Source of the DNA: Gemmatimonadota bacterium | GTDB taxonomy: Bacteria; Gemmatimonadota; Gemmatimonadetes; Gemmatimonadales; GWC2-71-9 | NCBI GenBank assembly: GCA_003222155.1 | Contig: QHUU01000063.1 | Span: 4,794 to 68,793 of the forward strand | Length of the DNA: 64,000 nucleotides | Direction of reading: 5' to 3' | Part shown: in pieces, positions 26,063 through 60,299 of the stretch | Layout of the letters: each line of letters starts with the position of its first letter | Numbering within the stretch: the stretch's first letter is position 1 | Notes under the pieces: model-generated | Told to the model about the DNA's origin: nothing | Databases searched by the model: none | What the model saw: only the letters and a program-made list of their open reading frames with translations | Program-made: the position numbers and the translations under genes

Positions 26063-26857
26063 ATGCCCCTCAACATCCGCACCTATCACGAGCTGACCGA
26101 GCCGGATCGGTCCGGGCTTCCGGGCCAGATCGCGGCCCAGCGGCGCCGGGTGGCGGCGCGGCTCGCGGGCGTGGGGCGCGTGGTCGCCGTGATGAGCGGC
26201 AAGGGTGGCGTGGGGAAGAGCTTCGCCACCGCGGGGCTCGCCCGGGCTCTGGCGCGCGCAGGTCGGGCCGCGGGGGTGCTCGACGCCGATTTCAACGGAC
26301 CGACCATCCCCGCACTTCTCAGCCTCCCTGTCGCACGTTGCACGTTGCATGAGGATGGCATCGAGCCGGCCGTGAGCGCGGAAGGCGTGCGGTGTTTCTC
26401 CATGGCGCTGCTCCTCGAAGACGGCCGGCCGCTCGGGTTCCGGGGCCCGGAGGCGGATAGCCACGTGTGGCGCGAGACGCTCGAAGCCGCGGCGCTGCGG
26501 GAGTTCCTGGCCGACGTCGCCTGGGGCCCGCTCGATCGGCTGCTCGTCGACCTGCCGCCCGGGATCCAGCGGTTCCAGGAGCTCGCCGGGCTGTTGCCGG
26601 CGCCGCCGGCCGTGCTGACCGTGACCATTCCCACGGCGGAATCGCGCGATGCGGTGCGCCGCGCGATGCAGTTCGCCCGGGAGCGCCGCGCTGAGCTGCT
26701 CGGCGTGGTGGAGAACATGGTGGACGGTCCGTTCGCCGGCGGCGCGGGCGAAGACCTGGCACGCGAGTTCGGGGTGCCGCTGCTCGCACGCATCCCCTGG
26801 CACCCGACCCCGGACGTCTGGGAAGCGGTGGCGCGAAGATTGGAAGGCGGGTCGTGA
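26063..26857 (+). CDS. Mrp/NBP35/ApbC-family P-loop ATPase (Fe-S cluster carrier type)
   Basis: Deviant Walker A VAVMSGKGGVGKSF. Also DADFNGPTIP, LLVDLPPG and VVENM motifs. Confidence 0.85.
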   Translation: MPLNIRTYHELTEPDRSGLPGQIAAQRRRVAARLAGVGRVVAVMSGKGGVGKSFATAGLARALARAGRAAGVLDADFNGPTIPALLSLPVARCTLHEDGIEPAVSAEGVRCFSMALLLEDGRPLGFRGPEADSHVWRETLEAAALREFLADVAWGPLDRLLVDLPPGIQRFQELAGLLPAPPAVLTVTIPTAESRDAVRRAMQFARERRAELLGVVENMVDGPFAGGAGEDLAREFGVPLLARIPWHPTPDVWEAVARRLEGGS

Positions 26858-26860
26858 GAG

Positions 26861-26959
26861 TTCACACGCTGAAGGGTGTACCCGAAACGGCCCTGCCCTT
26901 AAGGGCAGCGCTTCACCGGGCCCAGGCTTCAGCCTGGGAATCAAGGGGGCGCGTGTGAA
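26861..26959 (+). promoter_or_regulatory. Structured intergenic leader (outer stem enclosing two hairpins) that occludes the downstream start codon
   Basis: Outer stem TTCACACGC (26861-26869) pairs with GCGTGTGAA (26951-26959). Inner hairpins CTGCCC-TTAA-GGGCAG (26893-26908) and CCCAGGC-TTCA-GCCTGGG (26921-26938). The GTG start at 26955 sits in the outer stem. Confidence 0.4.
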
Positions 26960-27404
26960 GTTCCTCTGCGTCGACTGCGACCGGCAGATGCTGTTCGAGG
27001 AGCGGCAGCTCCCCGGGGACGGCACGCTCGCGGCGGCGTTCCGGTGCCCCCAATGCGGTCGCGCCGTCGGGCTGTTGACCAATCCGATGGAGACGCAGCT
27101 CGTGGCGTCGCTGGGCGTAAAGATCGGCGGGACGACGATCGACCCGCAGCCGCTCGAGACGGTGCGGGGGATGGTCACGACGGGGCGAGACGAAGCCTTC
27201 GCGGAGGCGGCGGGGGACGGGGGACGAGGGACGGGTGTCGTCTGGTCGGTCGACGCTCAGGAGCGCCTGGCCCGGGTCCCCAACTTCGTGCGCGGGATGG
27301 TGAAGAAGATCTACGCCGACTATGCCAAGGATCGCTGCATTGCGGAGATCACCCCGGCCGTGATGGACACCGCGCGGAGCGAGCTCGGGCTCGAGGGCAT
27401 GTGA
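26955..27404 (+). CDS. Zinc-ribbon + PCP_red (BchB/ChlB C-terminal-like) domain protein
   Basis: RBS AAGGGGG. CVDC...CPQC zinc ribbon. C-terminal VVWSVDAQERLARVPNFVRGMVKKIYADYAKDRCIAEITPAVMD matches the W-x-x-x-A-x-x-x-L-x-x-[IV]-P-x-F-[VA]-R pattern of PCP_red. Confidence 0.7.
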   Translation: MKFLCVDCDRQMLFEERQLPGDGTLAAAFRCPQCGRAVGLLTNPMETQLVASLGVKIGGTTIDPQPLETVRGMVTTGRDEAFAEAAGDGGRGTGVVWSVDAQERLARVPNFVRGMVKKIYADYAKDRCIAEITPAVMDTARSELGLEGM

Positions 27405-27676
27405 GCCTGGACGAGCGCACAGTCCACGGGCTGCGCATCGTGATCGACCGCGAGCAGTGCGTCGGGTTCGGCGACTGTGCGACGGCAGCCCCCGAGGGTT
27501 TCAAATTGGACGCCGACACCATCGCCACCTTCCTCGAGCCGGAGCGGGTGGAGCGCGAGCGCCTGCTGCGGGCGTGTGACGCCTGTCCGGTAGATGCCAT
27601 AACCGTTTGGGACTCAGAGGGTAGGCAGCTGGTGCCAGGACAGTCCACGGCTAGACGCACAGACGCACCGCGGTGA
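27401..27676 (+). CDS. Small single-cluster ferredoxin
   Basis: GTG overlapping the upstream stop (ATGTGA). CVGFGDC ... CDACPVDAI cysteine pattern. Confidence 0.75.
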   Translation: MSLDERTVHGLRIVIDREQCVGFGDCATAAPEGFKLDADTIATFLEPERVERERLLRACDACPVDAITVWDSEGRQLVPGQSTARRTDAPR

Positions 27677-27746
27677 ATAGGGAGTAGTCGGCAGGAGCAT
27701 CCGCCCACTCGGCCCTGTTCACCACTGTGCGTCCGTTGCGTCTAGC
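27650..27746. repeat. Long-range inverted repeat spanning the ferredoxin stop and intergenic spacer (terminator/insulator candidate)
   Basis: GCTAGACGCACAGACGCAC (27650-27668) versus GTGCGTCCGTTGCGTCTAGC (27727-27746). The arms are complementary apart from one extra base, separated by about 58 nt. Confidence 0.5.
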
Positions 27747-27772
27747 TGTTGCATCTTCTGTTCGCTGCTTAC

Positions 27773-27801
27773 TTGACAGCCTGTCTCGTCGTTCACATAC
27801 T
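27773..27801 (+). promoter_or_regulatory. Sigma-70-like promoter candidate for the USP/radical-SAM/bd-like operon
   Basis: TTGACA (27773-27778), 17-nt spacer, CATACT (27796-27801), about 20 nt upstream of the GTG at 27821. Confidence 0.4.
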
Positions 27802-27820
27802 CGCCGCGCCCAAAGGGGAG

Positions 27821-29794
27821 GTGCCGGTGTACCGCGAGATCTTCGTCCCGGTCGACAACTCGAGTCCTTCGGACTGGGCAGTCGACCGGGCCATCGAGTT
27901 GTGCCGCCAATCCGACGGCCGCATCACCGGAAACCACGTTTATGCCGCCCGCCTCCACGACGTCCGCTTTCGCCAGCTCGAAACCGGGCTCCCGGCCCGG
28001 TTCCAGACTCCCGACGAGATCAAGAAACAGCGCAAGATCCACGACAAGCTGATCGAAAAAGGCCTGCAACTGATCGCGGACAGCTTTCTCGACCAGCTGG
28101 GGAAGCGCTGCGAGGCGGCCGGCGTGCGTCTGACTCGCCAGCTGTTGGAAGGCATCAACTACGAGGAGATCGTCAACGAGGTGAACCGCGGCGCCGGCCG
28201 GCTGCCGGGGCTGATCGGCTTCGACCCCGACCGCGCGGCGGGCTACGACGGGGGCGACAAGACGCGCTCGGACGTGAAGGTGGGTGAGAATGGCCGGCTC
28301 GTGGCCGAAGACGAGGACGCGGCCGCGCGGCTTGCCGGCTCGTCGGGCCGCCAGTACGACCTGCTCGCGATCGGCGCGCACGGTCTGGGCCGTCAGCCCT
28401 ACTCGCAGCTCGGGGGCGTGGTGTCGCGCGTGCTGCGCGGCATCGAGAAGGACGTGCTGCTGGTGCGCGACGAGCGGCCGTTCGCGGGCGGGCGGTTCCT
28501 GGTGTGCGTGGACGGGTCGTCCTACGGCTATCGGGCGATGCGGCTGGCGCTCGAGCTGGCCCAGGCGTTCGGCGGGTCGCTGTTCGTGTGCAGCGCGTTC
28601 GACGTGGAGTACCACCACGTTGTGTTTCACAACATCAAGGATGTTCTCTCCTATCAAGCGTCCAAAGTCTTCAAGTTCGAGGAGCAGGAGGAGCTGCACA
28701 ACAACATCATCGACAAGGGCCTCCTGAAGCTGTGCCAGGCGAACCTGAAGCGCGCCGAGGTGATGGCGCAGGAGTTCCCCGGCGTCTCTCTCACGACGCA
28801 GATCCTGGTGGGCAAGCCGTTCCAGGTGATCATGCAGTGGGCCGAGGAGATCAAGCCGTCGCTGCTGGTGCTGGCGCGGCACGGCGCCCATCGGATCGAA
28901 GGCACCGAGCTCGGTAGCCAGGCGGAGAACCTCGTGCGGCTTGCGCCTTGCAACGTGCTGCTCGCGGGGACGGGCGGGGTGAGGCCCGAGGACATCCCCT
29001 GGATCGAGGAAGACGGGGTGGCGGGGCTGCCCTGGGCGCCGGAGGCCGAGGTGCGGATTCTGCGGGTGCCGCCGTTCGCGCAGGGGATCGCGCGCCGGGC
29101 CGTGGAGGAATACGTGCTGGAGCAGACGCACGGAGAGCCCGCGACGGTCACCAACAAGTGGCTCGACGAGGCGATCCGGAAGCTTCTGCCCACCCACATG
29201 CAGCTCATCATGGGCATCGGGACGGCCGAGGAGATCGCGCTCGCGGAAGTGAAGGCGCAGGAGCAAATGAAGGCGACGAAGGTGCATGGCTGCGACGCCG
29301 ACCCCCAGCCCCTGACCCCTGAAGTTGAAGTGAAATGCCCAGTCACGGGCGCTGTGAGCCGCCGTCCGCGCACCGCGGCCGACCCGATCGTCTGGACCGA
29401 GGAGGCCTGGCAGCGGCTGCAGCTGGTGCCCCTCATCGCCCGGCCGCTGGCGCGCAACACGGTCGAGCGGTTCGCGCGCGGGCACGACATCTGGCGCGTG
29501 AGCACCGGCGTGATGGACGAAAACAAACAGGCGATGATCGCGGCCGACGAGTTCGACGTGGACACGATGATGGTGATGTTCCAGGAGCTGCGCGCCAAGC
29601 AGATCCGCGCCGAGGCCGAAGGGCGCGATGGATTGAGTCCCGAGATGCGGGCGTTCATCGAGGAGGCGAAAGCGCAGGGGATCACGCGTTGCCCCATTCG
29701 GGACATCGAGGAAAAGATGGGGAAGTGCCCGGTCGACTTCGGGGGCCTGACGCCCGAGGAGGCGAAGCAGGCGGTGGAGAAGCTGTTGCAGTGA
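27821..29794 (+). CDS. Tandem universal-stress-protein (USP) domains fused to two PCP_red domains
   Basis: USP motifs (YREIFVPVDNS...; LLAIGAHGLGRQPYSQLGGVVSRVLRGIEKDVLLV; FLVCVDGS...LVLARHGAHRIEGTELGSQAENLVRLAPCNVLL). Then LPWAPEAEVRILRVPPFAQGIARRAVEEY and IVWTEEAWQRLQLVPLIARPLARNTVERFAR. Start at 27821 or 27827 (GTG); the ORF-track start at 27749 is unlikely. Confidence 0.8.
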   Translation: MPVYREIFVPVDNSSPSDWAVDRAIELCRQSDGRITGNHVYAARLHDVRFRQLETGLPARFQTPDEIKKQRKIHDKLIEKGLQLIADSFLDQLGKRCEAAGVRLTRQLLEGINYEEIVNEVNRGAGRLPGLIGFDPDRAAGYDGGDKTRSDVKVGENGRLVAEDEDAAARLAGSSGRQYDLLAIGAHGLGRQPYSQLGGVVSRVLRGIEKDVLLVRDERPFAGGRFLVCVDGSSYGYRAMRLALELAQAFGGSLFVCSAFDVEYHHVVFHNIKDVLSYQASKVFKFEEQEELHNNIIDKGLLKLCQANLKRAEVMAQEFPGVSLTTQILVGKPFQVIMQWAEEIKPSLLVLARHGAHRIEGTELGSQAENLVRLAPCNVLLAGTGGVRPEDIPWIEEDGVAGLPWAPEAEVRILRVPPFAQGIARRAVEEYVLEQTHGEPATVTNKWLDEAIRKLLPTHMQLIMGIGTAEEIALAEVKAQEQMKATKVHGCDADPQPLTPEVEVKCPVTGAVSRRPRTAADPIVWTEEAWQRLQLVPLIARPLARNTVERFARGHDIWRVSTGVMDENKQAMIAADEFDVDTMMVMFQELRAKQIRAEAEGRDGLSPEMRAFIEEAKAQGITRCPIRDIEEKMGKCPVDFGGLTPEEAKQAVEKLLQ

Positions 29795-31065
29795 ACCTCG
29801 TCCCGCACGTGATCGCCTGGAATCTGACCAGGCGCTGCAACCTCGAGTGCGCGCATTGCTACATCTCGGCCGGACCGAGCGAGAGCGCCGCCGCCGAGCT
29901 CGACACGGCGGCGTGCGTCGACATCGTGGACCAGCTGCTCGCGGTGAATCCCGCGCCACTCCTCATCCTGTCGGGAGGTGAGCCGTTGTTGCGGCCGGAC
30001 CTGGGCGAGATCGCCCACTACGCGTGCGCCAACGGCGCGACAGTGGTGGTCGGGACCAACGGCACGCTGCTCACCGAAGAGCGCATCGCGGCGCTCACGG
30101 ACGCCGGCGTGCGGGGCGTCGCGGTCAGCGTCGACTCGCTGCGTCCGTCGTATCACGACAACTTCCGCCACGGCAGAGGCGCTCTCGCCGATGTGCAGGC
30201 GGCGCTCGCGCGGCTGCGCGCGGCACGGCTCGACTTCATCGTGCAGACGACGGTGACCAAGGGCAACCGCGCCGAGCTGGAGCGCTTGGTGGCGTGGTCG
30301 GCAGACGAAGGGGCCGTCTCGTTCAACTGCTACTTTCTGGTGCCGACCGGCCGTGGCGCGGCGCTCTCGGACCTGACGCCGGCGGACTACGAGGCGGTGC
30401 TCGCCGACCTCGCTCGCTGGGAGGGCGCCTATCGGGGCCGCATGCTGGTGCGGGCGAAGTGCGCCCCGCATTTCATGCGCCTCGTGCATCAGACCGACCC
30501 CGAGTCCCCGGTCCTGAACTACGAGACCCGCTGTCCCTGCGGCACGCAGTACTGCCGCATCACCCCGGACGGCAAGGTCACGCCGTGCCCGTACCTGCCC
30601 GAGGTGGCCGGGGATCTGCGGTCGCAGCGCTTCGCCGACGTGTGGCGGTCGTCGCCCCTGTTCCGGCGCCTGCGGGAGGGCCCGCTGCAGGGGAAGTGCG
30701 GGGCGTGCGAGTACCGCGCGGTGTGCGGCGGGTGCCGGGCGCGCGGGTTCGCGCTCGAGGGGGACGTGCTCGCCGCCGATCCGTCGTGCCTTTATCAACC
30801 GACGGGCGACACGGCCGTCATCGAGCCGGCCCGCGCCGTGCGCTACGGCGGCGACTTTCAACCGGCGCTCGCGTGGACGCCCGCGGCGCGCGAGCGCGTG
30901 GCGCGCATCCCCTCGTTCGTGCGGGGGGTCGTGATGGAGCGGGTGGAGGCGTGGGCGCGCCGCCAGGGACGGCGCGAAGTCACACCCGAGCTGCTCGCGG
31001 AAGTGCGCCGCGCGCTGCCGATCGACTTTTCCAAGAAGCGCCCGTTCTTCGTGGCTGACAGCTGA
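29791..31065 (+). CDS. Radical SAM/SPASM enzyme (AhbC/AhbD/NirJ-like) with C-terminal PCP_red domain
   Basis: GTGA overlap with the upstream gene. CNLECAHC radical-SAM cluster motif and LILSGGEPLLRPD. SPASM cysteines CPCGTQYC ... CGACEYRAVCGGCRARG. Tail LAWTPAARERVARIPSFVRGVVMERVEAWARRQG. Confidence 0.9.
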   Translation: MNLVPHVIAWNLTRRCNLECAHCYISAGPSESAAAELDTAACVDIVDQLLAVNPAPLLILSGGEPLLRPDLGEIAHYACANGATVVVGTNGTLLTEERIAALTDAGVRGVAVSVDSLRPSYHDNFRHGRGALADVQAALARLRAARLDFIVQTTVTKGNRAELERLVAWSADEGAVSFNCYFLVPTGRGAALSDLTPADYEAVLADLARWEGAYRGRMLVRAKCAPHFMRLVHQTDPESPVLNYETRCPCGTQYCRITPDGKVTPCPYLPEVAGDLRSQRFADVWRSSPLFRRLREGPLQGKCGACEYRAVCGGCRARGFALEGDVLAADPSCLYQPTGDTAVIEPARAVRYGGDFQPALAWTPAARERVARIPSFVRGVVMERVEAWARRQGRREVTPELLAEVRRALPIDFSKKRPFFVADS

Positions 31066-32780
31066 TGACCGACGGCGCCCTGCTGCTGCAAGCCGCCGCC
31101 GACTCGACTCGCGCCTACGGCGAGTTCCCTGTGATCGGCGCGCGGGCGTTCATATGGATCACGGCCGAAGTGCACCTGATGTTCGCCGCCTTCGTGCTCG
31201 GCGTGCCGATGTTCGCCGTGGTGACGGAGGCGATCGGCATCTTCGGCGGCGACGAGCGCTACGACCGGCTGAGCAAGGAGTTCACGCGCCTCCTGCTCGT
31301 GGCGTACAGCGCCACGGCGATCTGGGGCGCGATGCTGGTGTTCGGCCTGTCGACGCTGTATCCCCGGTTCTGGGCGTACCTGACCGCGATTTTCGCGCCG
31401 TCGATGTGGGCCTACGCGGCACTGTTCCTCGTCGAGTCGTTCACGCTGTACCTCTATTACTACGGCTGGGACCGCTGGAAGAAAGGCCGGGCCAAGCTGG
31501 GCCACTGGACGCTCGGCATCCTGCTCAACCTGTGGGGCACGATCGTGATGTTCATCGCGAACTCGTGGCTCACGTACATGATGTCGCCGCCCCGGGATAT
31601 CACGCCCACCACCGACCCGACCACGATCAAGCTGTGGCACGCGATCGCCAACGCGACGTGGATGCCGATCAACGTGCACCGGGTGATCGCCAACGTCGTC
31701 TTCGGCGGCGCGATCGTGGGGGCGTATGCGAGCTATCGCTTCCTCGCGGCACAGAGCGACGAGGAGCGGGCGCACTACGACTGGATGGGCTACGTCGGGA
31801 ACTTCATCGCGATGTCGGCCCTGATCGTGCTGCCGTTCGCCGGCTACTGGCTGGGGCGCGAGATCTATCAGTACGACCAGTCGATGGGCATCACGATGAT
31901 GGGCGGGTTCATGAGCTGGTTGTGGGTGATCCAGGCGTTCCTGATCGCGGTGCTGTTCCTGACGGGGAACTACTACCTGTGGATCGGGATGGGCCGCATT
32001 CCCGGCGCGGAGCGGTTCCGGCCCTACACCAAGTACCTGCTGATCGTGCTGGTGCTCGGCGCCATCGTGTGGGGCACGCCTCACACGATGATCGCCGACT
32101 CGAAGGAGCTGGCGGCGATGGGCGGATCGCACCACCCGTTCCTGGGCGCCCTGGGCGTGATGAGCGCCAAGAACACTGCCGTGAACCTGATGATCCTGAC
32201 CACGTTCCTCTCGTTCCTGCTGTACCGGCGCGCCAACACCCGTCCGGTGGTCCCGTGGGCGCGCGGCGGGACCATCATCCAGGGGGCGATGTTCGCCCTG
32301 GCGGCCGGCGTCGTGCTGTTTTACGGCATCCGTGGCTATTTCGTCGAGGCCATCGTCCGCATCGGCTTCAGCGTGTATCAGGTGCTCGCCGTCCTGAGCT
32401 GCATCGTGTTCGTGACGGTGATCGACGTGTTGATGGCTCGCGGCGCGCAGTCGCTCGGCACGATCCAGTGGGGCAAGATGCCGCCGCGGTCGCAATACGC
32501 GCTGTTCATCCTCGCGGTGACGTTCACGTGGCTCATGGGGCTGATGGGGTTCGCCCGCTCCGGCATCCGCCAGTACTGGCACGTGTGGCAGGTGATGCAG
32601 GACACGAGCAAGTACGCCGCCACCCCGGCGCTCGGCTACGCGTCCAAGATGATCAGCCTGTGCGTGCTGATCTTTCTCACGCTCGTCGCGTTCGTGTTCT
32701 GGCTCGGCGGGCTGGCGGAGAAGTCCACGTTCGTCGCCTCCGGCGAGCGCCAGGGAGGGGGCCGCCATGTGGGCCACTAA
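31065..32780 (+). CDS. Cytochrome bd subunit-I-like (CydA-like) membrane protein, no Q-loop, no CydB partner
   Basis: 1-nt overlap (TGATG) with the radical SAM gene. CydA-like motifs VHLMFAAFVLGVP, LFLVESFTLYLYYYGWDR, KLGHWTLG, IANSWLTYMMSP, INVHRVIANV. Polytopic throughout. Confidence 0.8.
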   Translation: MTDGALLLQAAADSTRAYGEFPVIGARAFIWITAEVHLMFAAFVLGVPMFAVVTEAIGIFGGDERYDRLSKEFTRLLLVAYSATAIWGAMLVFGLSTLYPRFWAYLTAIFAPSMWAYAALFLVESFTLYLYYYGWDRWKKGRAKLGHWTLGILLNLWGTIVMFIANSWLTYMMSPPRDITPTTDPTTIKLWHAIANATWMPINVHRVIANVVFGGAIVGAYASYRFLAAQSDEERAHYDWMGYVGNFIAMSALIVLPFAGYWLGREIYQYDQSMGITMMGGFMSWLWVIQAFLIAVLFLTGNYYLWIGMGRIPGAERFRPYTKYLLIVLVLGAIVWGTPHTMIADSKELAAMGGSHHPFLGALGVMSAKNTAVNLMILTTFLSFLLYRRANTRPVVPWARGGTIIQGAMFALAAGVVLFYGIRGYFVEAIVRIGFSVYQVLAVLSCIVFVTVIDVLMARGAQSLGTIQWGKMPPRSQYALFILAVTFTWLMGLMGFARSGIRQYWHVWQVMQDTSKYAATPALGYASKMISLCVLIFLTLVAFVFWLGGLAEKSTFVASGERQGGGRHVGH

Positions 32781-33576
32781 CCTGAAGGTCGTCGGGATCG
32801 TGCTGGGGACCCTGGCACTCTATACGCTCATCGCCAACAAGATTCCGCAGGTGCAGTCCGAGGTGCCGCAAACCCTCACCCTGGGGGCGAACGTCACGCC
32901 CGAACAGCTGGTGGCGGCGGGAGAGAAGGTGTTCAACGGCATCGGCGGCTGCCCCACCTGCCACGGGCTCGGCACGCGCGCGCCCAATCTCCTCACGGAC
33001 GAGAAGGGCACCGGACCGATCGGCGCCCGCTGCGGCAAGCGGGAAGCCGGCAAGAGCTGCAAGCAGTATCTGTACGAGTCGCTCGACAATCCGACCGCGT
33101 TCGTCGTGACGGGCTATCAGCCGATCATGCCGGTCATGACCAGGCAGCTCTCGCCAGAGCAGATCTGGTCGGTGATCGCCTTCTTGGAGTCGCAGGGCGG
33201 CACCGTGGACGTAACAGGGGACGACGTAGCCAAAGCGAAGCAACTGACCCCGGGCGCAAGCCCGGCGAATTCGGGAGGTAGTCCTGGTGGTGGGGCCTTT
33301 GCCGCCGGCAGCACGGACCCCAAAGCCATCATCCAGGCGGCGGGGTGCCTCGCGTGCCACAAGCTCGACGGCCAGGGACAGGTGATCGCGCCCGATCTCA
33401 CGCATGTGGGCGCGCGCCGGGACGCGGAATCGATCCGCAAGAAGATCCTGGATCCGGCGTCGTCGATCGCGAAGGGCTACGAGAAGCTCGCCGGGATCAT
33501 GCCCAAGACGTTCGGCACCATGATGAGCGCCGCGCAGCTCGAAGCGCTGGTGCAGTATCTGGCGGGGCACAAGTGA
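32767..33576 (+). CDS. Membrane-anchored dihaem c-type cytochrome
   Basis: N-terminal TM segment and two CxxCH motifs (CPTCH, CLACH), each followed by a Met-containing distal region. 14-nt overlap with the upstream gene. Confidence 0.85.
   Translation: MWATNLKVVGIVLGTLALYTLIANKIPQVQSEVPQTLTLGANVTPEQLVAAGEKVFNGIGGCPTCHGLGTRAPNLLTDEKGTGPIGARCGKREAGKSCKQYLYESLDNPTAFVVTGYQPIMPVMTRQLSPEQIWSVIAFLESQGGTVDVTGDDVAKAKQLTPGASPANSGGSPGGGAFAAGSTDPKAIIQAAGCLACHKLDGQGQVIAPDLTHVGARRDAESIRKKILDPASSIAKGYEKLAGIMPKTFGTMMSAAQLEALVQYLAGHK
33244..33265. repeat. REP-like element family A, partial copy 4, embedded in the cytochrome c inter-domain linker
   Basis: CTGACCCCGGGCGCAAGCCCGG is identical over 22 nt to 45522-45543. 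It is translated as ..LTPGASPAN.. Confidence 0.6.
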
Positions 33577-34391
33577 CCGCACCCGCGCTGCGGCGCTCCG
33601 CCACGCACCCGTTCTGGCAGGCGGTGGGAATTCTCGTTATCGCCTACATCGTAGTCGTGTGGGTGGTGCCGCTGCTCCCGGGCAGCGCCATCGTCCCGAA
33701 GAGCGTGGTGCTCCAATACATGGTCACGGTGCTGGTCGGCGTGCTCATCTACGTGAGCGACAACGAGGAACGTTGGGCCCGCTTCAAAGAGCCGATCGAG
33801 GCCGTGCTGGCCGAGCCGCGGCTCCGGGTGGTGCGGGCCGTGCTGCTCGTCGTGGTGACGGCGCTGGTCGGGCTCGTGGCGTACGGGCAGGTGGCCACCA
33901 CCGTCGCCGCCCCACCCAATCTCCGCTCGATCCACCCCGCCCCGCCCGCGGAAATCACGTTCCGGGGCAGGTCGATCACGCTGACAGGGCTCGAGAACCC
34001 GCTGCGCGCGCACCCGGAGTCGCTCGCCCTCTACCTGGCCGAGGGGAAGGGCGTCTACTACCGCAACTGCCTGCCCTGTCACGGGGACCACCTCGACGGT
34101 CAGGGGCACTTCGCATCGGGGTTCAATCCACTGCCGGCGAACTTCCAGGACAACGGCACCATCGCCCAGCTCACGGAGAGCTTCGTGTTCTGGCGCGTGG
34201 CCAAGGGCGGGCCGGGTCTGCCGCGTGAGGGCACGCCGTGGAACTCGGCGATGCCGAAGTGGGAGGACTTTCTCACGGAGCGCGAGATCTGGTCGGTGAT
34301 CCTGTTCCTGTACGATCAAACCGGGTGGACTCCACGAACCTGGGAGAAAACGGGGACGGGGGACGGGGGACGGGGGACGGGGCATGATTGA
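33573..34391 (+). CDS. Polytopic membrane-anchored monohaem c-type cytochrome
   Basis: GTGA overlap with the upstream gene. Three or four TM segments, then CLPCHGDHLDG and a ...NSAMPKWEDFLTEREIWSVILFLY cytochrome c fold. Confidence 0.8.
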   Translation: MTAPALRRSATHPFWQAVGILVIAYIVVVWVVPLLPGSAIVPKSVVLQYMVTVLVGVLIYVSDNEERWARFKEPIEAVLAEPRLRVVRAVLLVVVTALVGLVAYGQVATTVAAPPNLRSIHPAPPAEITFRGRSITLTGLENPLRAHPESLALYLAEGKGVYYRNCLPCHGDHLDGQGHFASGFNPLPANFQDNGTIAQLTESFVFWRVAKGGPGLPREGTPWNSAMPKWEDFLTEREIWSVILFLYDQTGWTPRTWEKTGTGDGGRGTGHD

Positions 34392-34452
34392 CGGGCTTCT
34401 GGTCCTCGCGCTCCTCGCACCACTCGTCCCCCGTCCCCCTTCCCTCGTCCCG
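34351..34452. repeat. (GGGGACG)x4 heptamer array plus inverted (CGTCCCC-like)x4 array forming a long hairpin over a gene junction
   Basis: Left arm 34352-34379 is four exact GGGGACG units. Right arm 34425-34452 is CGTCCCC CGTCCCC CTTCCCT CGTCCCG. The 42-nt loop holds the ATG at 34384 and the TGA at 34389-34391. Confidence 0.8.
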
Positions 34453-35961
34453 CTGCAGGACACGACGAAAGGGAAGGCAGTTTATGTGAAGTGGTGCGCC
34501 GGTTGCCATGGCGATGGCGGCGCGGGCGACGGCCCCTCCGCCGCGCACATGCTTCCCCGGCCCCGCAACTTCACCGGCGCGATCTATAAGATCCGCAGTA
34601 CGGCCTCGGGTCAGCTGCCGACCGACGCCGACCTGATGCGGGCGATCGACGAAGGGCTGCCCGGGAGCGCGATGCCGGCGTGGAAGGGGCGCCTGTCGGA
34701 CGGCGAGCGGCGCGACGTGGCCGGGTACATCAAGACGTTCTCCGCGTTCTTCGCGGACACGAGCCAGCACGCGGCGGCGCTCAAGTTCTCGGGCGAGCCG
34801 GGCGGTGGCACCGGCGCGGCGGCGCTCAAGACCGGGCGCCAGTTCTACGATTCCATCGGGTGCCGCAAGTGTCACGGCGACCAGGGGCGGGGAGACGGGC
34901 CGTCCGCGCCCACGCTCAAGGACGACGCCGGGTTTCCCATCTTCGCGGCGGACCTGCATCAGAGCTGGCGGTTTCGCGGGGGGGGCAGTGCGGCGGACAT
35001 CTACCACCGGCTGCGCACCGGGCTCGACGGGACACCGATGCCCTCGTTCTCGGACCTGATCGACCAGAAGTTCCTGACCGACGAGCAGCTGTGGCGGCTG
35101 GCCCAGTACGTACGCTCGCTCTCGCCGCCCGACCCGCCCGAGGTGCGCGACGTCATCCATGCGCCGCAGATCGCCGGCCCCGCGCCGGTCTCGCCCGACG
35201 ACTCGGCGTGGGCGCGCGCCGACCGCTACTGGTTCCCGCTCGTCGGGCAGGTGGTGCGCAAGGCGCGCTGGTTCGCGCCCGCGGTGACGGGTGTGTGGGT
35301 GCAGGCGCTGCACGACGGCCACACCCTCGCGCTGCGGTTGAGCTGGGACGATCGCACCCAGAGCCCTGACAGCGCGTGGCTCGGGTTCGAGCAGCGCGTG
35401 CTCGAGACCGTCGCCGGCGACGACTCGGGCCCCCCCAAGGCGGAGCCGTGGCCCGACCAGCTGGCGGTGCAGTTCCCCCGCCGTCTCCCGGAGGGTTCGG
35501 GGGGCATGGAGCGCCCCTACTTCTTGATGGGAAGCGAGACCGACCCGGTGTACCAGTGGCGCTGGACCAGCCGGCCGCGCAAGAGCGTCGCGGGCCTGGC
35601 CCGGGGCATCGAGCGGTTCGACACGCTCCCCGGGGCGTTGGCGGGGCAGGCGAGCTTCGATCACGGCGAGTGGCGGCTGGTGTTCACGCGCGCCCTTGCC
35701 ACGCCGGATACCGCCAACGAAGTTCAGCTTGAGGCCGGCCGGGCGATTCCGGTGGCCTTCTTCGGCTGGGACGGCTCCAGCGGGGAACACGGCTCGCGCA
35801 TGGCGGTGAGCACCTGGTACTTCCTGGCGCTCGATCGGCCCACGCCGCCGGGCGTGTTCATTTCTCCGGTGCTGGCCATGCTCGTGACGCTGGGACTGGG
35901 GCTCGTGGTCGTCCGGCGGGCCCGGCGGCGCGGTACGGCGCGTGCAGGGAGACAGCGATAG
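34384..35961 (+). CDS. Dihaem cytochrome c fused to an EB_dh/DOMON-like (ethylbenzene-dehydrogenase gamma-type) haem-binding domain, C-terminal TM anchor
   Basis: CAGCH and CRKCH motifs. Then WVQALHDGHTLALRLSWDD...DQLAVQFP...YFLMG...YQWRW...GEWRLVFTRAL...VAFFGWDGSSGEHGSRMAVSTW, as in EB_dh-family domains. Terminal TM segment ISPVLAMLVTLGLGLVVV. Confidence 0.8.
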   Translation: MIDGLLVLALLAPLVPRPPSLVPLQDTTKGKAVYVKWCAGCHGDGGAGDGPSAAHMLPRPRNFTGAIYKIRSTASGQLPTDADLMRAIDEGLPGSAMPAWKGRLSDGERRDVAGYIKTFSAFFADTSQHAAALKFSGEPGGGTGAAALKTGRQFYDSIGCRKCHGDQGRGDGPSAPTLKDDAGFPIFAADLHQSWRFRGGGSAADIYHRLRTGLDGTPMPSFSDLIDQKFLTDEQLWRLAQYVRSLSPPDPPEVRDVIHAPQIAGPAPVSPDDSAWARADRYWFPLVGQVVRKARWFAPAVTGVWVQALHDGHTLALRLSWDDRTQSPDSAWLGFEQRVLETVAGDDSGPPKAEPWPDQLAVQFPRRLPEGSGGMERPYFLMGSETDPVYQWRWTSRPRKSVAGLARGIERFDTLPGALAGQASFDHGEWRLVFTRALATPDTANEVQLEAGRAIPVAFFGWDGSSGEHGSRMAVSTWYFLALDRPTPPGVFISPVLAMLVTLGLGLVVVRRARRRGTARAGRQR

Positions 35962-41207: not shown

Positions 41208-41404
41208 CGCTCGCCGCAGTGCTCCTGCTGCTGCACGGGGGGGACGACCCGCACATGGAGCTGCTCTACTTCTGGGCGGCCGTGATCCTGGCCCTCACGC
41301 CGGTGCTGATATTCGGTGGGCTCGGCGTGTGGATCGTGCGGAAGATGTGGCAGGAGCAACGCGGAGCGCGGAACGCGGAACGCGGAACAGAGGGACAGGC
41401 CTGA
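41204..41404 (+). CDS. Small one-TM membrane protein (hypothetical) with repeat-encoded tail
   Basis: ATGA overlap with the upstream gene. MELLYFWAAVILALTPVLIFGGLGVWIV. The tail QRGARNAERGTEGQA is encoded by the GCGGAAC array. Confidence 0.4.
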   Translation: MTLAAVLLLLHGGDDPHMELLYFWAAVILALTPVLIFGGLGVWIVRKMWQEQRGARNAERGTEGQA

Positions 41405-41415
41405 GGTTCCGCGTT
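41361..41415 (+). repeat. (GCGGAGC)(GCGGAAC)x3 heptamer array plus inverted GTTCCGCGTT (terminator-like hairpin)
   Basis: Four tandem heptamers at 41361-41388. The inverted unit at 41406-41415 is complementary to AACGCGGAAC. The TGA stop at 41402-41404 lies in the loop, and TTAGATTCGTT follows. Confidence 0.7.
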
Positions 41416-41426
41416 AGATTCGTTGC

Positions 41427-58585: not shown

Positions 58586-59428
58586 ATGGAACCGTCGCGC
58601 GCGCTGTATCGGTTTGCCGGTGCTCTCGAACCTCTCCTGGTCGCTCCGGATGCCGCCGCCTTCGAGCGGGCGTGGGATGCGGCGCATCTCGACCGCCTCG
58701 CGTGGGAGGCGCTCGCGCTCGCCCGACGGGCGAACAGTGCGGCGCTCGAGCCCGCCCTGCACGCGGTGGACCGCCGGCTCCTCGCCGTGCTGGAGCGCTG
58801 CCGCTCGTTCCTCGATCCGCATCTCGTGACCTTCCGCGTTCCCGAGCTGGAGCGCTGTCAGCACGCGGCCGCCGCGGCGCTCGCCGGGGCGCGCTGGGGC
58901 GTGGCCGGGTTACGAACCGTCATCGCCGATACGGCGGCCCCGCTCGGTCGCCGCTATTTCGCGTTCCTCGCGCTCGCGGAGCGCCATCCGGAAGGGGCCT
59001 GGCCGCTGTTCGAGCGCTATCTCGTGACTCCGGGAGCGCACCACGCGTTCGTCGCCGCGGCGGTGGAAGCGGCGCGGTTCTACGTGGGCCACGCCGCAGT
59101 GCTGGAGCGCCTGTTTCAGCGCATCCGCGGCGACCACCTGCTGCGCCGCTTCCTCGGTCCCAAGATTCTCGAGTCGCTGTACGTCCTCGCCGAGGAGCGT
59201 ACCCTCCCGCTGTTCGAGGAGCTGCTCGTCTCGGGCCACACCGACCCAGACGTGGAGCGCTGCGAGGTGACCCGGGCCCTCGTGGCCGTGCGCCGGCTCA
59301 CGGGACGCGTGGCGCGGAGCTCGAAGTTCGCCGACGGCGACGATCCGGCCGTGCTGCGCACGCTCGACGACGCGGAGCGACAATTCGAGCAGCAGCGGGA
59401 TCGGATCGTGCCGGTGGTGGTCATTTGA
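58586..59428 (+). CDS. Hypothetical all-helical protein
   Basis: Long ORF with consistent codon bias. Alternative start at 58532. No family recognised. Confidence 0.45.
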   Translation: MEPSRALYRFAGALEPLLVAPDAAAFERAWDAAHLDRLAWEALALARRANSAALEPALHAVDRRLLAVLERCRSFLDPHLVTFRVPELERCQHAAAAALAGARWGVAGLRTVIADTAAPLGRRYFAFLALAERHPEGAWPLFERYLVTPGAHHAFVAAAVEAARFYVGHAAVLERLFQRIRGDHLLRRFLGPKILESLYVLAEERTLPLFEELLVSGHTDPDVERCEVTRALVAVRRLTGRVARSSKFADGDDPAVLRTLDDAERQFEQQRDRIVPVVVI

Positions 59429-60299
59429 CGAACTCCCACAGCTTGTCCCGGTAGGCCCGCCCACCGCGGTCGTAGGTCTCGTTGTGCCCCGCGCCGTGGA
59501 TCAGGACCAGCTGGACCGGTCCCGACGCCGCCGCAGCCACCGCTCTCCCCATCGCCGTCGGCACGAGGCGGTCGGCATCTCCGTGGAACACGAGCACCGG
59601 GGAGCGGATCTGCTGCATGCGACCGACGTTGTCGAGTGAGAGGCGGACGATAAAGCGCGGCAACAGGGCATACAGCTGACGCGCCATCGCAGCCGCGCTG
59701 GTGAACGGGGATTCGAGGATCAAGCCGGCGACGGGATGGCGCGCCGCCACCCAGGTCGCGGCTGCGGTGCCGAGCGAGCGGCCGTAGACGTAGATGCGGC
59801 CCGGGTCGACCCCGGGTCGTGCCACCAACGCCGCGTAGGCGGCGTCCGCCGCGCCATACAGCGCCGTCTCGGTCGCCCGGCCCGCGCTCCCGCCGTAGCC
59901 CGGATAGTCGACCACCAGGACGGCCGTTCCGGGCGGCTGAAACTCGCGCACGATGGGCCAGATGGCCGCGATGTTTTCGCCGTTGCCGTAGAGCCAGAGG
60001 AGGCCAGGGGAGGTTGCGGAGGCTGGAGGAGGTTGCGGGAGGTTGATGCGGTGCGGAACGACCTCCCCTAACCTCCCCCGTCCTCCCCCAACCTCGGGTT
60101 TCAAGTACCACCCGACCAGTCTGGTTCCGTCCTCCATCGTCACCTCGACCTTCTCCCCGTTCGCGACGCCGACGCGTTTCGGATCCGGGACCGGGGCGCG
60201 GGGCGCCGGAAAGGCGAGACGCTCCTGGAACCGCCACGCGAGCAGCACGAGCAGCGCGTACGCCAGCGCGAGCCCGAGCGCGATCCGGAGGGCGAGCAT
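59421..60299 (-). CDS. Alpha/beta-fold hydrolase (membrane-anchored) carrying a repeat-derived insertion
   Basis: N-terminal TM segment. Nucleophile elbow GRSLGT, then GDADRLV and GAGHNE (Ser-Asp-His triad). Confidence 0.85.
   Translation of the reverse strand: MLALRIALGLALAYALLVLLAWRFQERLAFPAPRAPVPDPKRVGVANGEKVEVTMEDGTRLVGWYLKPEVGGGRGRLGEVVPHRINLPQPPPASATSPGLLWLYGNGENIAAIWPIVREFQPPGTAVLVVDYPGYGGSAGRATETALYGAADAAYAALVARPGVDPGRIYVYGRSLGTAAATWVAARHPVAGLILESPFTSAAAMARQLYALLPRFIVRLSLDNVGRMQQIRSPVLVFHGDADRLVPTAMGRAVAAAASGPVQLVLIHGAGHNETYDRGGRAYRDKLWEFVK
60007..60097. repeat. Imperfect purine-rich/pyrimidine-rich palindrome (GGAGGTTGC-type units) inside the hydrolase CDS
   Basis: GGGGAGGTTGCGGAGGCTGGAGGAGGTTGCGGGAGGTTGA ... 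ACCTCCCCTAACCTCCCCCGTCCTCCCCCAACCTC. The inner GGGAGGT/ACCTCCC pair is exact. Confidence 0.6.

Follow-up and report, generated by a model that had tools for sequence, protein, structure and literature searches.

Why should a short tandem array and its inverted copy enclose the very point at which two cytochrome genes overlap, and what would such an arrangement do for the bacterium that carries it? The question is raised by positions 34352-34452 of a 64,000-nucleotide stretch of Gemmatimonadota DNA (contig QHUU01000063.1, positions 4,794 to 68,793; hereafter the window), where heptamers of the sequence GGGGACG and, beyond a loop, their inverted counterparts bracket the stop codon of one gene and the start codon of the next. 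The original prediction regarded this locus as a candidate switch between a hairpin and a G-quadruplex (G4) in the mRNA, with a number of heptamers that might change by slippage. The element is most likely a tandem-repeat (TR) hairpin, made of a short array of 7- or 8-nt units, a loop and an inverted array, and belonging to a class distributed throughout the Gemmatimonadales. Its role is stated more tentatively: the reading preferred here, with a probability of roughly 0.45, is that of a selected mRNA stem-loop at the cistron boundary, which would occlude the initiation region of the downstream gene.

The hairpin at the cytochrome gene boundary

The left arm, (GGGGACG)x4.4 at 34352-34382 of the forward strand, is a perfect tandem array in which four complete heptamers (34352-34379) are followed by GGGC and then by ATGATTGA; Tandem Repeats Finder (TRF) reports it with a period of 7, 4.4 copies and 100% matches. 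It lies inside the upstream gene (33573-34391, forward strand), which codes for a membrane-anchored (transmembrane) monohaem cytochrome c of 272 residues, and encodes the C-terminal tail GTGDGGRGTG of this protein. The 41-nt loop (34382-34422, forward strand) contains the ATG start (34384-34386) of the downstream gene, the TGA stop (34389-34391) of the upstream one, and codons of the hydrophobic core MIDGLLVLALLAP of the downstream signal peptide. The right arm (34423-34452, forward strand) is the inverted copy, reading CTCGTCCCC CGTCCCC CTTCCCT CGTCCCG, and departs from a perfect array by three substitutions; its stretch 34425-34452 reads CGTCCCC CGTCCCC CTTCCCT CGTCCCG, and TRF finds in it the unit CGTCCCC with a period of 7, 3.9 copies and 85% matches at 34425-34451. 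This arm encodes LVPRPPSLVP, which in the downstream protein follows the hydrophobic core and precedes the mature N-terminus (QDTT); that protein is a dihaem cytochrome c of 525 residues with an EB_dh domain (34384-35961, forward strand). Both genes were delimited from the open reading frames (ORFs), Pfam and public gene calls, the latter placing them at matching positions, with 272 and 525 residues, in ten contigs. The GTG start of the upstream gene in turn overlaps the stop of the gene preceding it. According to the table of ORFs, the upstream protein ends in ...WEKTGTGDGGRGTGHD* and the downstream protein begins with MIDGLLVLALLAPLVPRPPSLVPLQDTT. The layout first predicted, i.e. the position of the arrays, the inverted counterpart, the ATG and TGA enclosed in the loop, and the translation of both arms into the peptides announced, was thus recovered concordantly from the sequence, TRF, the repeat finder and the ORF table.

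The two arms form a stem of 28 pairs with a single mismatch, in which 34353-34381 pairs with 34423-34451 and which alone accounts for about -66 kcal/mol; the pair list of the RNA fold shows the left-arm bases 34353-34381 in pairs, and the repeat finder gives 93% complementarity for 34353-34379 and 34425-34451, at a distance of 45 nt. As predicted, the arms pair better than shuffled controls: the RNA of 34330-34470 folds at -78.1 kcal/mol, compared to -60.3 +/- 3.7 for shuffled sequences (z = -4.77), and none of 200 shuffles folds as well. Folded as single-stranded DNA, the same region yields z = -4.9. Six matches to the 14-mer of two units, GGGGACGGGGGACG, with at most one mismatch, occur in the window where 0.23 are expected, and two hairpins made of a tandem array and its inverted copy exceed the score threshold, with none in each of 20 dinucleotide shuffles. 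An assembly artefact is ruled out, since the 161 nt around the hairpin are the same in ten contigs assembled independently from different soil samples, which are 99.8-100% identical across 4-7 kb. The hairpin is real, and far beyond chance.

The last repeat unit (34372-34381, forward strand), a purine/G run resembling a Shine-Dalgarno (SD) sequence, is located 3-12 nt before the ATG and is paired in the stem; it would presumably act as the SD sequence of the downstream gene. In this respect, the earlier proposal that pairing buries the site of translational coupling holds for the SD-like unit and fails for the stop and start codons themselves, which remain in the loop, the ATG lying 3 nt after the last pair.

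Other identities proposed for such a structure found little echo in the window. A terminator scan returned nothing at 34350-34460, and an intrinsic terminator is hardly compatible with a 41-nt loop and with a stem followed by CTGCAGGACACG, without any U-tract. The promoter scan was similarly empty at the site of the hairpin, and Rfam gave no family at gathering score, only generic miRNA-precursor models below threshold on both strands. A programmed -1 frameshift signal does not fit either, GGGGACG being different from X XXY YYZ and the repeats forming the stem itself. The complementarity of Gly (GGN) and Pro (CCN) codons was also considered as the cause of the inverted repeat and rejected: the stems match at every codon position, units such as GACGGTTA/TAACCGTC encode no Gly or Pro runs, and the reading frames differ between lineages. 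Finally, the polarity of the arms was discarded as evidence, since the G-rich arm of a palindrome is 5' on both strands and so carries no information on strand or RNA function.

Homologous junctions and the evolution of the arms

A scan with the downstream protein, restricted to one genome per species, yielded 80 loci of shared gene order, nearly all of them annotated as metagenome-assembled genomes of Gemmatimonadales or Gemmatimonadota (one is titled 'uncultured bacterium' only), and a metagenome scan added 80 further, closer loci with 84-96% identity. The window itself, through a neighbouring protein with an exact match, is assigned to a Gemmatimonadetes metagenome-assembled genome (locus tag DMD44). 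The working set consists of 156 syntenic Gemmatimonadales loci, which correspond to 131 distinct junction sequences. The junction was delimited by two conserved anchors 40-183 nt apart, namely the final residues of the upstream protein (...TWEK) and the first ones of the mature downstream protein (QDTT...), and a hairpin was accepted where both arms were periodic and each measured at least 16 nt.

A hairpin of the window's design occurs in 92 of the 131 distinct junctions (~70%), with a unit period of 7 in 68 of them, 8 in 22 and 6 in the remaining two. At least 35 different consensus units are encountered at this single homologous site, for example GGGGACG, GGGAAAG, GGGAAAC, CGGGAGG, GGGGAGC, GCAGGGA, GTGAGCG and GACGGTTA, as well as GTCGGATG, GGCGGACG, GACGGCCT and GGCGGTTG. 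The peptides encoded by distinct unit classes are wholly different, and the protein is therefore not what is conserved. What persists is the match between the arms: the complementarity score of a left arm averages 18.9 with its own right arm versus 7.3 with the right arms of other loci. In period-7 units, a conserved GGGR core pairs with YCCC while the three variable positions swap between GC, AU and CG pairs.

Covariation was assessed on a MAFFT alignment of 21 sequences, upon which the pairing of the window was imposed and compared to 500 shuffles. The cells of the alignment were paired in 77% of cases (70.1 +/- 1.1 after shuffling), 57 cells were changed on both sides (28.7 +/- 5.1 after shuffling) and the covariation score reached 0.240 (0.146 after shuffling), none of the 500 shuffles attaining any of these values. 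Shifting the partner by 1-3 columns lowers both the percentage of pairs and the covariation score. When left to find a structure in the same 21-junction alignment, RNAalifold missed the stem and proposed 11 pairs only; the covariation became apparent with the explicit structure.

The junctions devoid of a hairpin are informative as to how the arms arose. They measure 40-62 nt and possess the same overlapping stop and start (ATGAxTRA or GTGA), with a minimal upstream tail (e.g., WEKSAEGGHD*) and a minimal signal peptide (e.g., MISALFMLTVLVAQDTT), which identifies the arms as additions to a junction already coupled. Compared to these relatives, both arms of the window are insertions that flank a conserved core, the loop being homologous to the entire junction core of the hairpin-less loci; the left arm lengthens the tail of the upstream protein, and the right arm lengthens the part of the downstream signal peptide extending from the core to the mature end. 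Across a large clade, the design of the hairpin at this junction is conserved and its sequence is not.

A duplication on a larger scale was observed at one homologous junction: that of locus L087, 183 nt long and known from a single metagenome contig, harbours a 64-nt tandem duplication which comprises part of the left arm, the ATG and codons of the hydrophobic core.

The rate at which the arms evolve depends on whether junctions of the same or of different classes are compared. Between the window and seven relatives with the same unit, the four-fold synonymous sites of the flanking genes differ by 30-46% (mean 0.33), whereas the left arm differs by 3%, the right arm by 11% and the loop by 19%. 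The differences in the right arm include amino-acid changes, so that conservation of the protein does not explain the slow rate of the arms. Over 73 within-class pairs, which cover 20 groups of left-arm sequences and were restricted beforehand to junctions of equal length and of 80% identity or more (a choice which biases arm divergence downward), the divergence is 0.336 at synonymous sites, 0.046 in the left arm, 0.058 in the right arm and 0.104 in the loop. Within a class, the arms accordingly evolve some 6-7 times more slowly than four-fold synonymous sites (3-10 times over both comparisons). The contrast between arms and loop inside the same junctions is less affected by the preselection of pairs, and in the period-8 groups the loop diverges by ~0.33 and the arms by 0.03-0.05.

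Between classes, everything is replaced. Among loci whose flanks share ~90% nucleotide identity, the junction is either ~87-90% identical, with the same unit, or ~60-68% identical, with another one. The closest relative, L081, has 91.5% identity in the flanks and displays ACGGGAA/TTCCCGT in place of ACGGGGG/CCCCCGT in the window, in every unit of both arms; its signal-peptide core differs as well. The junction thus exists as discrete classes which do not track the flanking sequences, with arms conserved inside a class and complete replacement from one class to another. Since all units of both arms are exchanged between close relatives, stepwise compensatory substitution is insufficient, and wholesale replacement requires either homogenisation, by slippage of the array and template switching between the arms, or recombination of the whole junction. 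Homogenisation of the arms of inverted repeats by template switching has been described in E. coli (PMC7202029) and in coding DNA of yeast (PMC8604942). Intermediate states also occur: in two groups of relatives (L024/L118/L120/L122/L124 and L018/L134/L141...), three units persist in the right arm and the left arm has shrunk from four to a single one. The left-arm units often resemble expansions of the adjacent conserved sequence, e.g., TGGGAGAA, which contains the W-E-K codons, and this resemblance points to an origin in place rather than to the insertion of a mobile element.

Placement, proposed role and competing explanations

With respect to the position of the downstream start codon, the 92 hairpins can be subdivided in different types. 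In 64 of them, 61 of which are of period 7, the start is located in the loop, a median of 2 nt past the left arm, whose final G-rich unit takes the SD position. In another 23, 21 of which are of period 8, the start lies 5' of the stem, the two being separated by a median of 7 nt; a separate GGAGG and the GTGA/ATGA overlap come first, and the entire hairpin is included in the region coding for the signal peptide. The start falls within the left arm itself in the last five. Altogether, the start is inside the left arm or at most 17 nt from it in 90 of 92 cases, with two outliers at up to 35 nt, and in all architectures the left arm of these 90 hairpins therefore overlaps the footprint of the ribosome on the downstream initiation site. 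The remaining layout is invariant, as the loop always holds codons of the hydrophobic core and the right arm always directly precedes the QDTT codons.

That two independent architectures both place the left arm over the initiation region of the downstream gene, together with the slow evolution of the arms and the high occupancy, favours a selected mRNA stem-loop that would occlude this region. RNA rather than DNA would be the active level, with an effect on translation and on stability. The arms are accommodated in the sole tolerant sequence near the overlapping stop and start, i.e. the C-terminal tail of the upstream protein and the core-to-mature-end part of the downstream signal peptide. 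In the mechanism proposed, the folded 28-bp stem (~-66 kcal/mol) would hold the SD-like last unit and abut the AUG, so that a free 30S subunit could not initiate on the dihaem/EB_dh gene. A ribosome completing the upstream cistron would melt the left arm and terminate 5 nt past the AUG, and downstream translation would be tied in this way to that of the upstream gene, enforcing coupling and a fixed stoichiometry. The stem might also shield the upstream message from 3'-5' exonucleases, probably as a side effect. The repeat design and its turnover between lineages would result from replication slippage within the arrays and template switching between the arms, which would homogenise both units and arms, while selection would keep the stem.

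Intercistronic stem-loops of the inhibitory type enforce translational coupling at the MS2 coat-replicase boundary and in ribosomal-protein operons. Two features expected of such a device are found in the window: the SD-like unit is paired, and the upstream ORF runs through the left arm and ends at the downstream start, with the TGA at +5 from the ATG. In such a device, expression of the downstream gene would depend on translation of the upstream one. In the period-8 type, the stop and start precede the stem. A predicted fold that is better in the sense than in the antisense strand in 68 of 91 differing cases (23 show the reverse) is compatible with a function in RNA.

Several observations weigh against such a role. 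The hairpin is missing from 39 of the 131 junctions and several lineages retain a single arm (the L024 and L018 groups), hence it is dispensable. The position of the stop codon varies, some junctions having it 5' of the stem and others within the left arm or the loop, so that a finely tuned coupling device is far from obvious. Mismatches of the G.U type (73) scarcely outnumber those of the A.C type (56), a weak wobble bias in loci that are moreover phylogenetically related. Arm divergence in the within-class comparison is biased downward by the preselection of pairs, and homogenisation or recombination might by themselves mimic conservation. Lastly, a role in translation is improbable for some hairpins of the same design, one of them lying within a hydrolase gene and another in the space that separates convergent genes.

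These and other sites show that the hairpin of the junction belongs to a wider class of hairpins in Gemmatimonadales genomes. A second site in the window (41358-41416, forward strand), some 7 kb downstream, has (AACGCGG)x4.4 as the sequence coding for the tail of a small membrane protein, and only about 1.5 inverted units are left (GTTCCGCGTT). In relatives, the hairpin of this site is complete in ~18 of 32 loci and absent from ~10, and is built from units AACGCGG, AATGCGG, GGGAGCG or GGGAGAA; the site lies at 12926-13000 in L003 and at 12971-13087 in L031, the right arm being mostly deleted in the window and in L078. The third site (59993-60095, reverse strand) is made of G-rich units of ~10 nt and their inverted copies inside an alpha/beta-hydrolase gene (59421-60299), and encodes EVGGGRGRLGEVVPHRINLPQPPPASATSP. 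It represents an insertion of 25-35 residues, Gly-rich and then Pro-rich, which some homologues do not possess; in L161, it uses another unit, folds at -98 kcal/mol and encodes another peptide. The homologues of the hydrolase extend over 2766-3719 in L161 and 3655-4605 in L162, and the number of TSP repeats varies among them. At the 3' end of the hydrolase gene, relatives L161-L164 carry a further hairpin of the GGGGACG/GGGGAAG type between convergent genes (L161 3640-3710, L162 4533-4602), which extends the protein by ...GRGTGEEGRGRTTHPPSLVPRP; the equivalent place in the window (~59421) is devoid of it. Another one, GGATGCG x3/CGCATCC x3.3 with a 10-nt loop, occurs at 10484-10538 of L161, just 3' of the stop codon of a gene for a PQQ-repeat protein.

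Arrays also occur alone. The solo array GGGGACG GGGGACG AGGGACG at 27211-27235 (forward strand), inside an ORF with a PCP_red domain (26649-27404), has no inverted partner and encodes GDGGRGTG, a peptide also present in the tail of the cytochrome c. GGGGACG arrays are thus found at two sites of the 64-kb window, the three hairpins of which use three different units. A protein database search with the idealised translation of a GGGGACG hairpin gave three weak matches, low-complexity sequences being unsuited as queries.

Several related patterns were encountered in the window and in its relatives. Solo heptamer arrays are present in many relatives at the junction between the radical-SAM and CydA-like genes (at about -3400 nt from the cytochrome junction; e.g., L009, L030, L058) and absent from that of the window (~31065); each of their units carries a TGA or TAA and often an ATG (GGCTGAC GGCTGAT..., ACGGATA ACGGATG...). 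The motif TTAGAT follows the right arm at three unrelated sites (window 41410-41426; L161 10539-10549; L161 3713-3720/L162 4610-4617), and may represent a weak U-tract, a box of the -10 type ahead of an almost leaderless ATG, or simply the Ile and stop codons of a convergent gene. A palindrome of period 9, with a loop of 5-12 nt, codes for a linker, Pro-rich at first and Gly-rich afterwards, that joins the two haem domains of the dihaem cytochrome c (L031 4847-4911, L034 4848-4912, L043 5011-5071); its C-rich arm comes first and its G-rich arm second, a polarity opposite to that of the other hairpins, and the equivalent position in the window is ~33230, inside the gene at 32767-33576.

So wide a distribution leads to the first alternative, namely a non-adaptive, self-perpetuating palindromic microsatellite, lodged in tolerant sequence and playing no role in expression. 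Slippage from G-rich seeds (TGGGAGAA, the SD region) would generate the array, and fold-back template switching would copy its inverted partner and keep the arms matched. The same design indeed recurs at unrelated tolerant sites, such as the tail of the membrane protein, the hydrolase coding sequence, the space between convergent genes and L161 10484-10538; solo heptamer arrays exist at another junction and at 27211; states with and without the hairpin, or with one arm, are found at every site; and the left-arm units resemble adjacent conserved codons. The concerted change of all units in both arms between close relatives calls, in addition, for a homogenising mechanism, and template switching which homogenises arms is documented (PMC7202029, PMC8604942). 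What a passive microsatellite fails to account for is the conservation of arms whose rate of change is 3-10 times below that of four-fold synonymous sites. In population-genetic theory, concerted evolution would not be expected by itself to slow the divergence between species. The occupancy is similarly difficult to reconcile with it, as it reaches ~70% here and at one other junction and is nil at the other ten or so junctions of the 13-kb loci, and so is the convergence of two architectures on this junction. A purely non-adaptive hairpin is consequently held to be unlikely, although it deserves to be taken seriously.

A second alternative assigns the hairpin to the boundary of transcripts rather than to translation, as a barrier to 3'-exonucleases, a processing site of the RNase III type or a weak internal terminator, which would set the level of the upstream genes (CydA-like, cytochromes c) above that of the downstream ones (EB_dh cytochrome, cox). 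Unequal gene levels within transcripts are set in this manner by REP/BIME elements and by the intercistronic hairpins of puf and mal. The hairpin always ends downstream of the stop of the upstream gene, most other members of the class are at gene 3' ends, and 25-30 near-perfect pairs are, as a matter of general knowledge, long enough for a double-strand-specific RNase; REPs located at gene ends or between cistrons affect the upstream gene when they lie less than 15 nt from its stop (PMC12306157). However, both arms are translated, so that the passage of ribosomes along an active message would hold the stem open, and cleavage in the stem would cut both coding regions. The 41-nt loop and the lack of a U-tract make a poor fit to an intrinsic terminator, and the location of the left arm in the downstream initiation region is left unexplained. 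Such a boundary function is considered improbable.

The toggle initially put forward, in which a G4 would form when the right arm is unavailable and change access to the start, has very little probability. As claimed, the left arm by itself qualifies as a canonical G4 motif, with five runs of four to five G, and folds in isolation at -34 kcal/mol (ViennaRNA, G-quadruplexes enabled); a G4 is also the predicted fold once the right arm is blocked. With both arms free, however, the hairpin at -78.1 kcal/mol stays the minimum-energy structure even where G4 are allowed, so that the switch does not stand as the point of the element. Nor is the G4 conserved: the left arm contains at least four runs of three or more G in only 39 of the 92 hairpins and at most one in 30, and units like GTGAGCG, GACGGTTA and GACGGCCT are unable to form it. 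A G4 appears physically possible in this genome, according to the predicted folds, and is not a conserved feature.

Even more remote is a phase-variable contingency locus, in which a slip of one heptamer would determine whether two separate proteins or a fused tri-haem protein are made, or would modify the upstream tail. The unit is not a multiple of three and arrays have collapsed in some lineages. The sequence confirms that, with one unit deleted, the upstream ORF would share the frame of the ATG and the two ORFs would be fused, the downstream frame being open for 29 codons upstream of the ATG; a working frame switch finds no such support, and the suspected change of copy number among strains was not encountered. 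All ten assemblies, from different samples and 99.8-100% identical, have 4.4 copies, as do eight same-class relatives at ~30-46% synonymous divergence, and a frame joining both proteins is found in none of the 131 distinct junctions. In addition, ATGATTGA contains stops in both frames other than that of the start, so that, for two thirds of the possible array lengths, the upstream protein would terminate within 8 nt.

The single insertion of a mobile palindromic element, whether REP/BIME-like or resembling miniature transposable elements with inverted repeats (MITEs) or Rickettsia palindromic elements, can scarcely be entertained: hairpins of the GGGGACG/CGTCCCC type at unrelated loci (the hydrolase 3' end of L161-L164, and the solo array at 27211) and the recurrence of unit types in distant lineages would agree with it, but the arms flank ~40 nt of host sequence homologous to hairpin-less junctions, which a single insertion cannot explain, the three hairpins of the window have three units and no common consensus, and neither terminal inverted repeats nor target duplications were noticed, no systematic search for them having been made.

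Relation to known elements and significance

Compared to the inhibitory intercistronic stem-loops, the element shares a stem that would sequester the downstream SD sequence and early coding region, and an upstream ORF which passes through one arm to end at the downstream start. It differs by its arms made of tandem 7- or 8-mers and both included in the coding sequences of two proteins, by an unusually long stem of 25-35 bp and by the wholesale replacement of its sequence between lineages, and it is known here from sequence only.

The REP/BIME elements are extragenic, 14-40 nt long, and consist of one consensus in many copies per genome (PMC12306157). Like them, the present hairpins are palindromic and transcribed, occur at gene ends or between cistrons, have a species-specific sequence and could affect the stability and translation of the adjacent gene; unlike them, their arms are located in coding DNA and internally tandem-repeated, with three units for three copies in 64 kb. 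Membership of REP/BIME was rejected on the ground of location, the structure being a stem-loop as in REP/BIME, but both arms being translated instead of extragenic. Rickettsia palindromic elements are dispersed copies of a conserved family of 100-150 bp inserted as one piece (PMC10969869). The likeness to them and to MITEs lies in a translated hairpin DNA which adds a peptide at permissive positions; the hairpins described here differ from the Rickettsia elements in being specific to a site and a lineage, apparently seeded locally, and in having arms separated by host sequence.

The heptamers of the cyanobacterial STRR and the TAACTGA repeats of Beggiatoaceae are intergenic direct repeats, with one genome-wide heptamer that is almost never inverted (PMC4679880). 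They too are grouped close to gene boundaries, in short arrays with 2-6 copies of a 7-nt unit, for which a post-transcriptional role is proposed, but the resemblance is limited to unit length, since in the present case an inverted partner array defines a hairpin and the unit varies. Template switching at quasipalindromes (PMC7202029, PMC8604942) similarly perfects imperfect inverted repeats and keeps arms matched; it is a mutational process rather than an element, and is not known to preserve tandem-unit arrays through long periods of evolution. Literature searches on tandem and inverted repeats of Gemmatimonadetes and on heptamer hairpins returned no description of paired tandem and inverted arrays of this kind. 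It is conceivable, though still rather doubtful, that the TR hairpins of the Gemmatimonadales constitute an undescribed class of elements, i.e. palindromic microsatellites of 7-10-nt units, generated and homogenised in place through slippage and template switching between the arms, maintained by selection in the form of RNA stem-loops where cistrons meet or genes end, and written into coding sequence, with discrete and interchangeable sequence classes at any given site. If so, they would remodel protein tails, signal peptides and surface loops.

The junction is part of a respiratory cluster which, according to Pfam, begins with a CydA-like gene (31065-32780) and a dihaem cytochrome c gene (32767-33576), followed by the two genes of the junction. 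On the 3' side of the EB_dh gene come a CarboxypepD_reg protein and then genes that, judged from their ORF translations, probably code for cytochrome oxidase subunits. The genes of the cluster overlap by 4-20 nt, the first two by 14 nt. Directly upstream of the CydA-like/cytochrome genes, the window displays three consecutive proteins with a PCP_red domain (protochlorophyllide reductase 57 kD subunit) at 26649-31065, namely a small zinc-ribbon-like ORF, a Usp-domain protein and a radical SAM/SPASM protein.

Should the stem prove functional, the locus would offer an uncommonly clear example from nature of an RNA structure that is retained as its sequence is exchanged wholesale (at least 35 units at one site), and the same bases would serve as protein tail, signal peptide and stem within two overlapping coding regions. 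Such a device could set the subunit ratios in an uncharacterised respiratory cluster comprising the CydA-like protein, cytochromes c, the EB_dh protein and a cytochrome oxidase, in hosts that are abundant and mostly uncultured soil bacteria. The locus also offers a model for the concerted evolution of palindromic microsatellites and for natural template-switch mutagenesis. More generally, the Gly-rich tails, Pro-rich linkers and odd signal peptides of Gemmatimonadales proteins may often be translated hairpins, a point of relevance to annotators and structure predictors.

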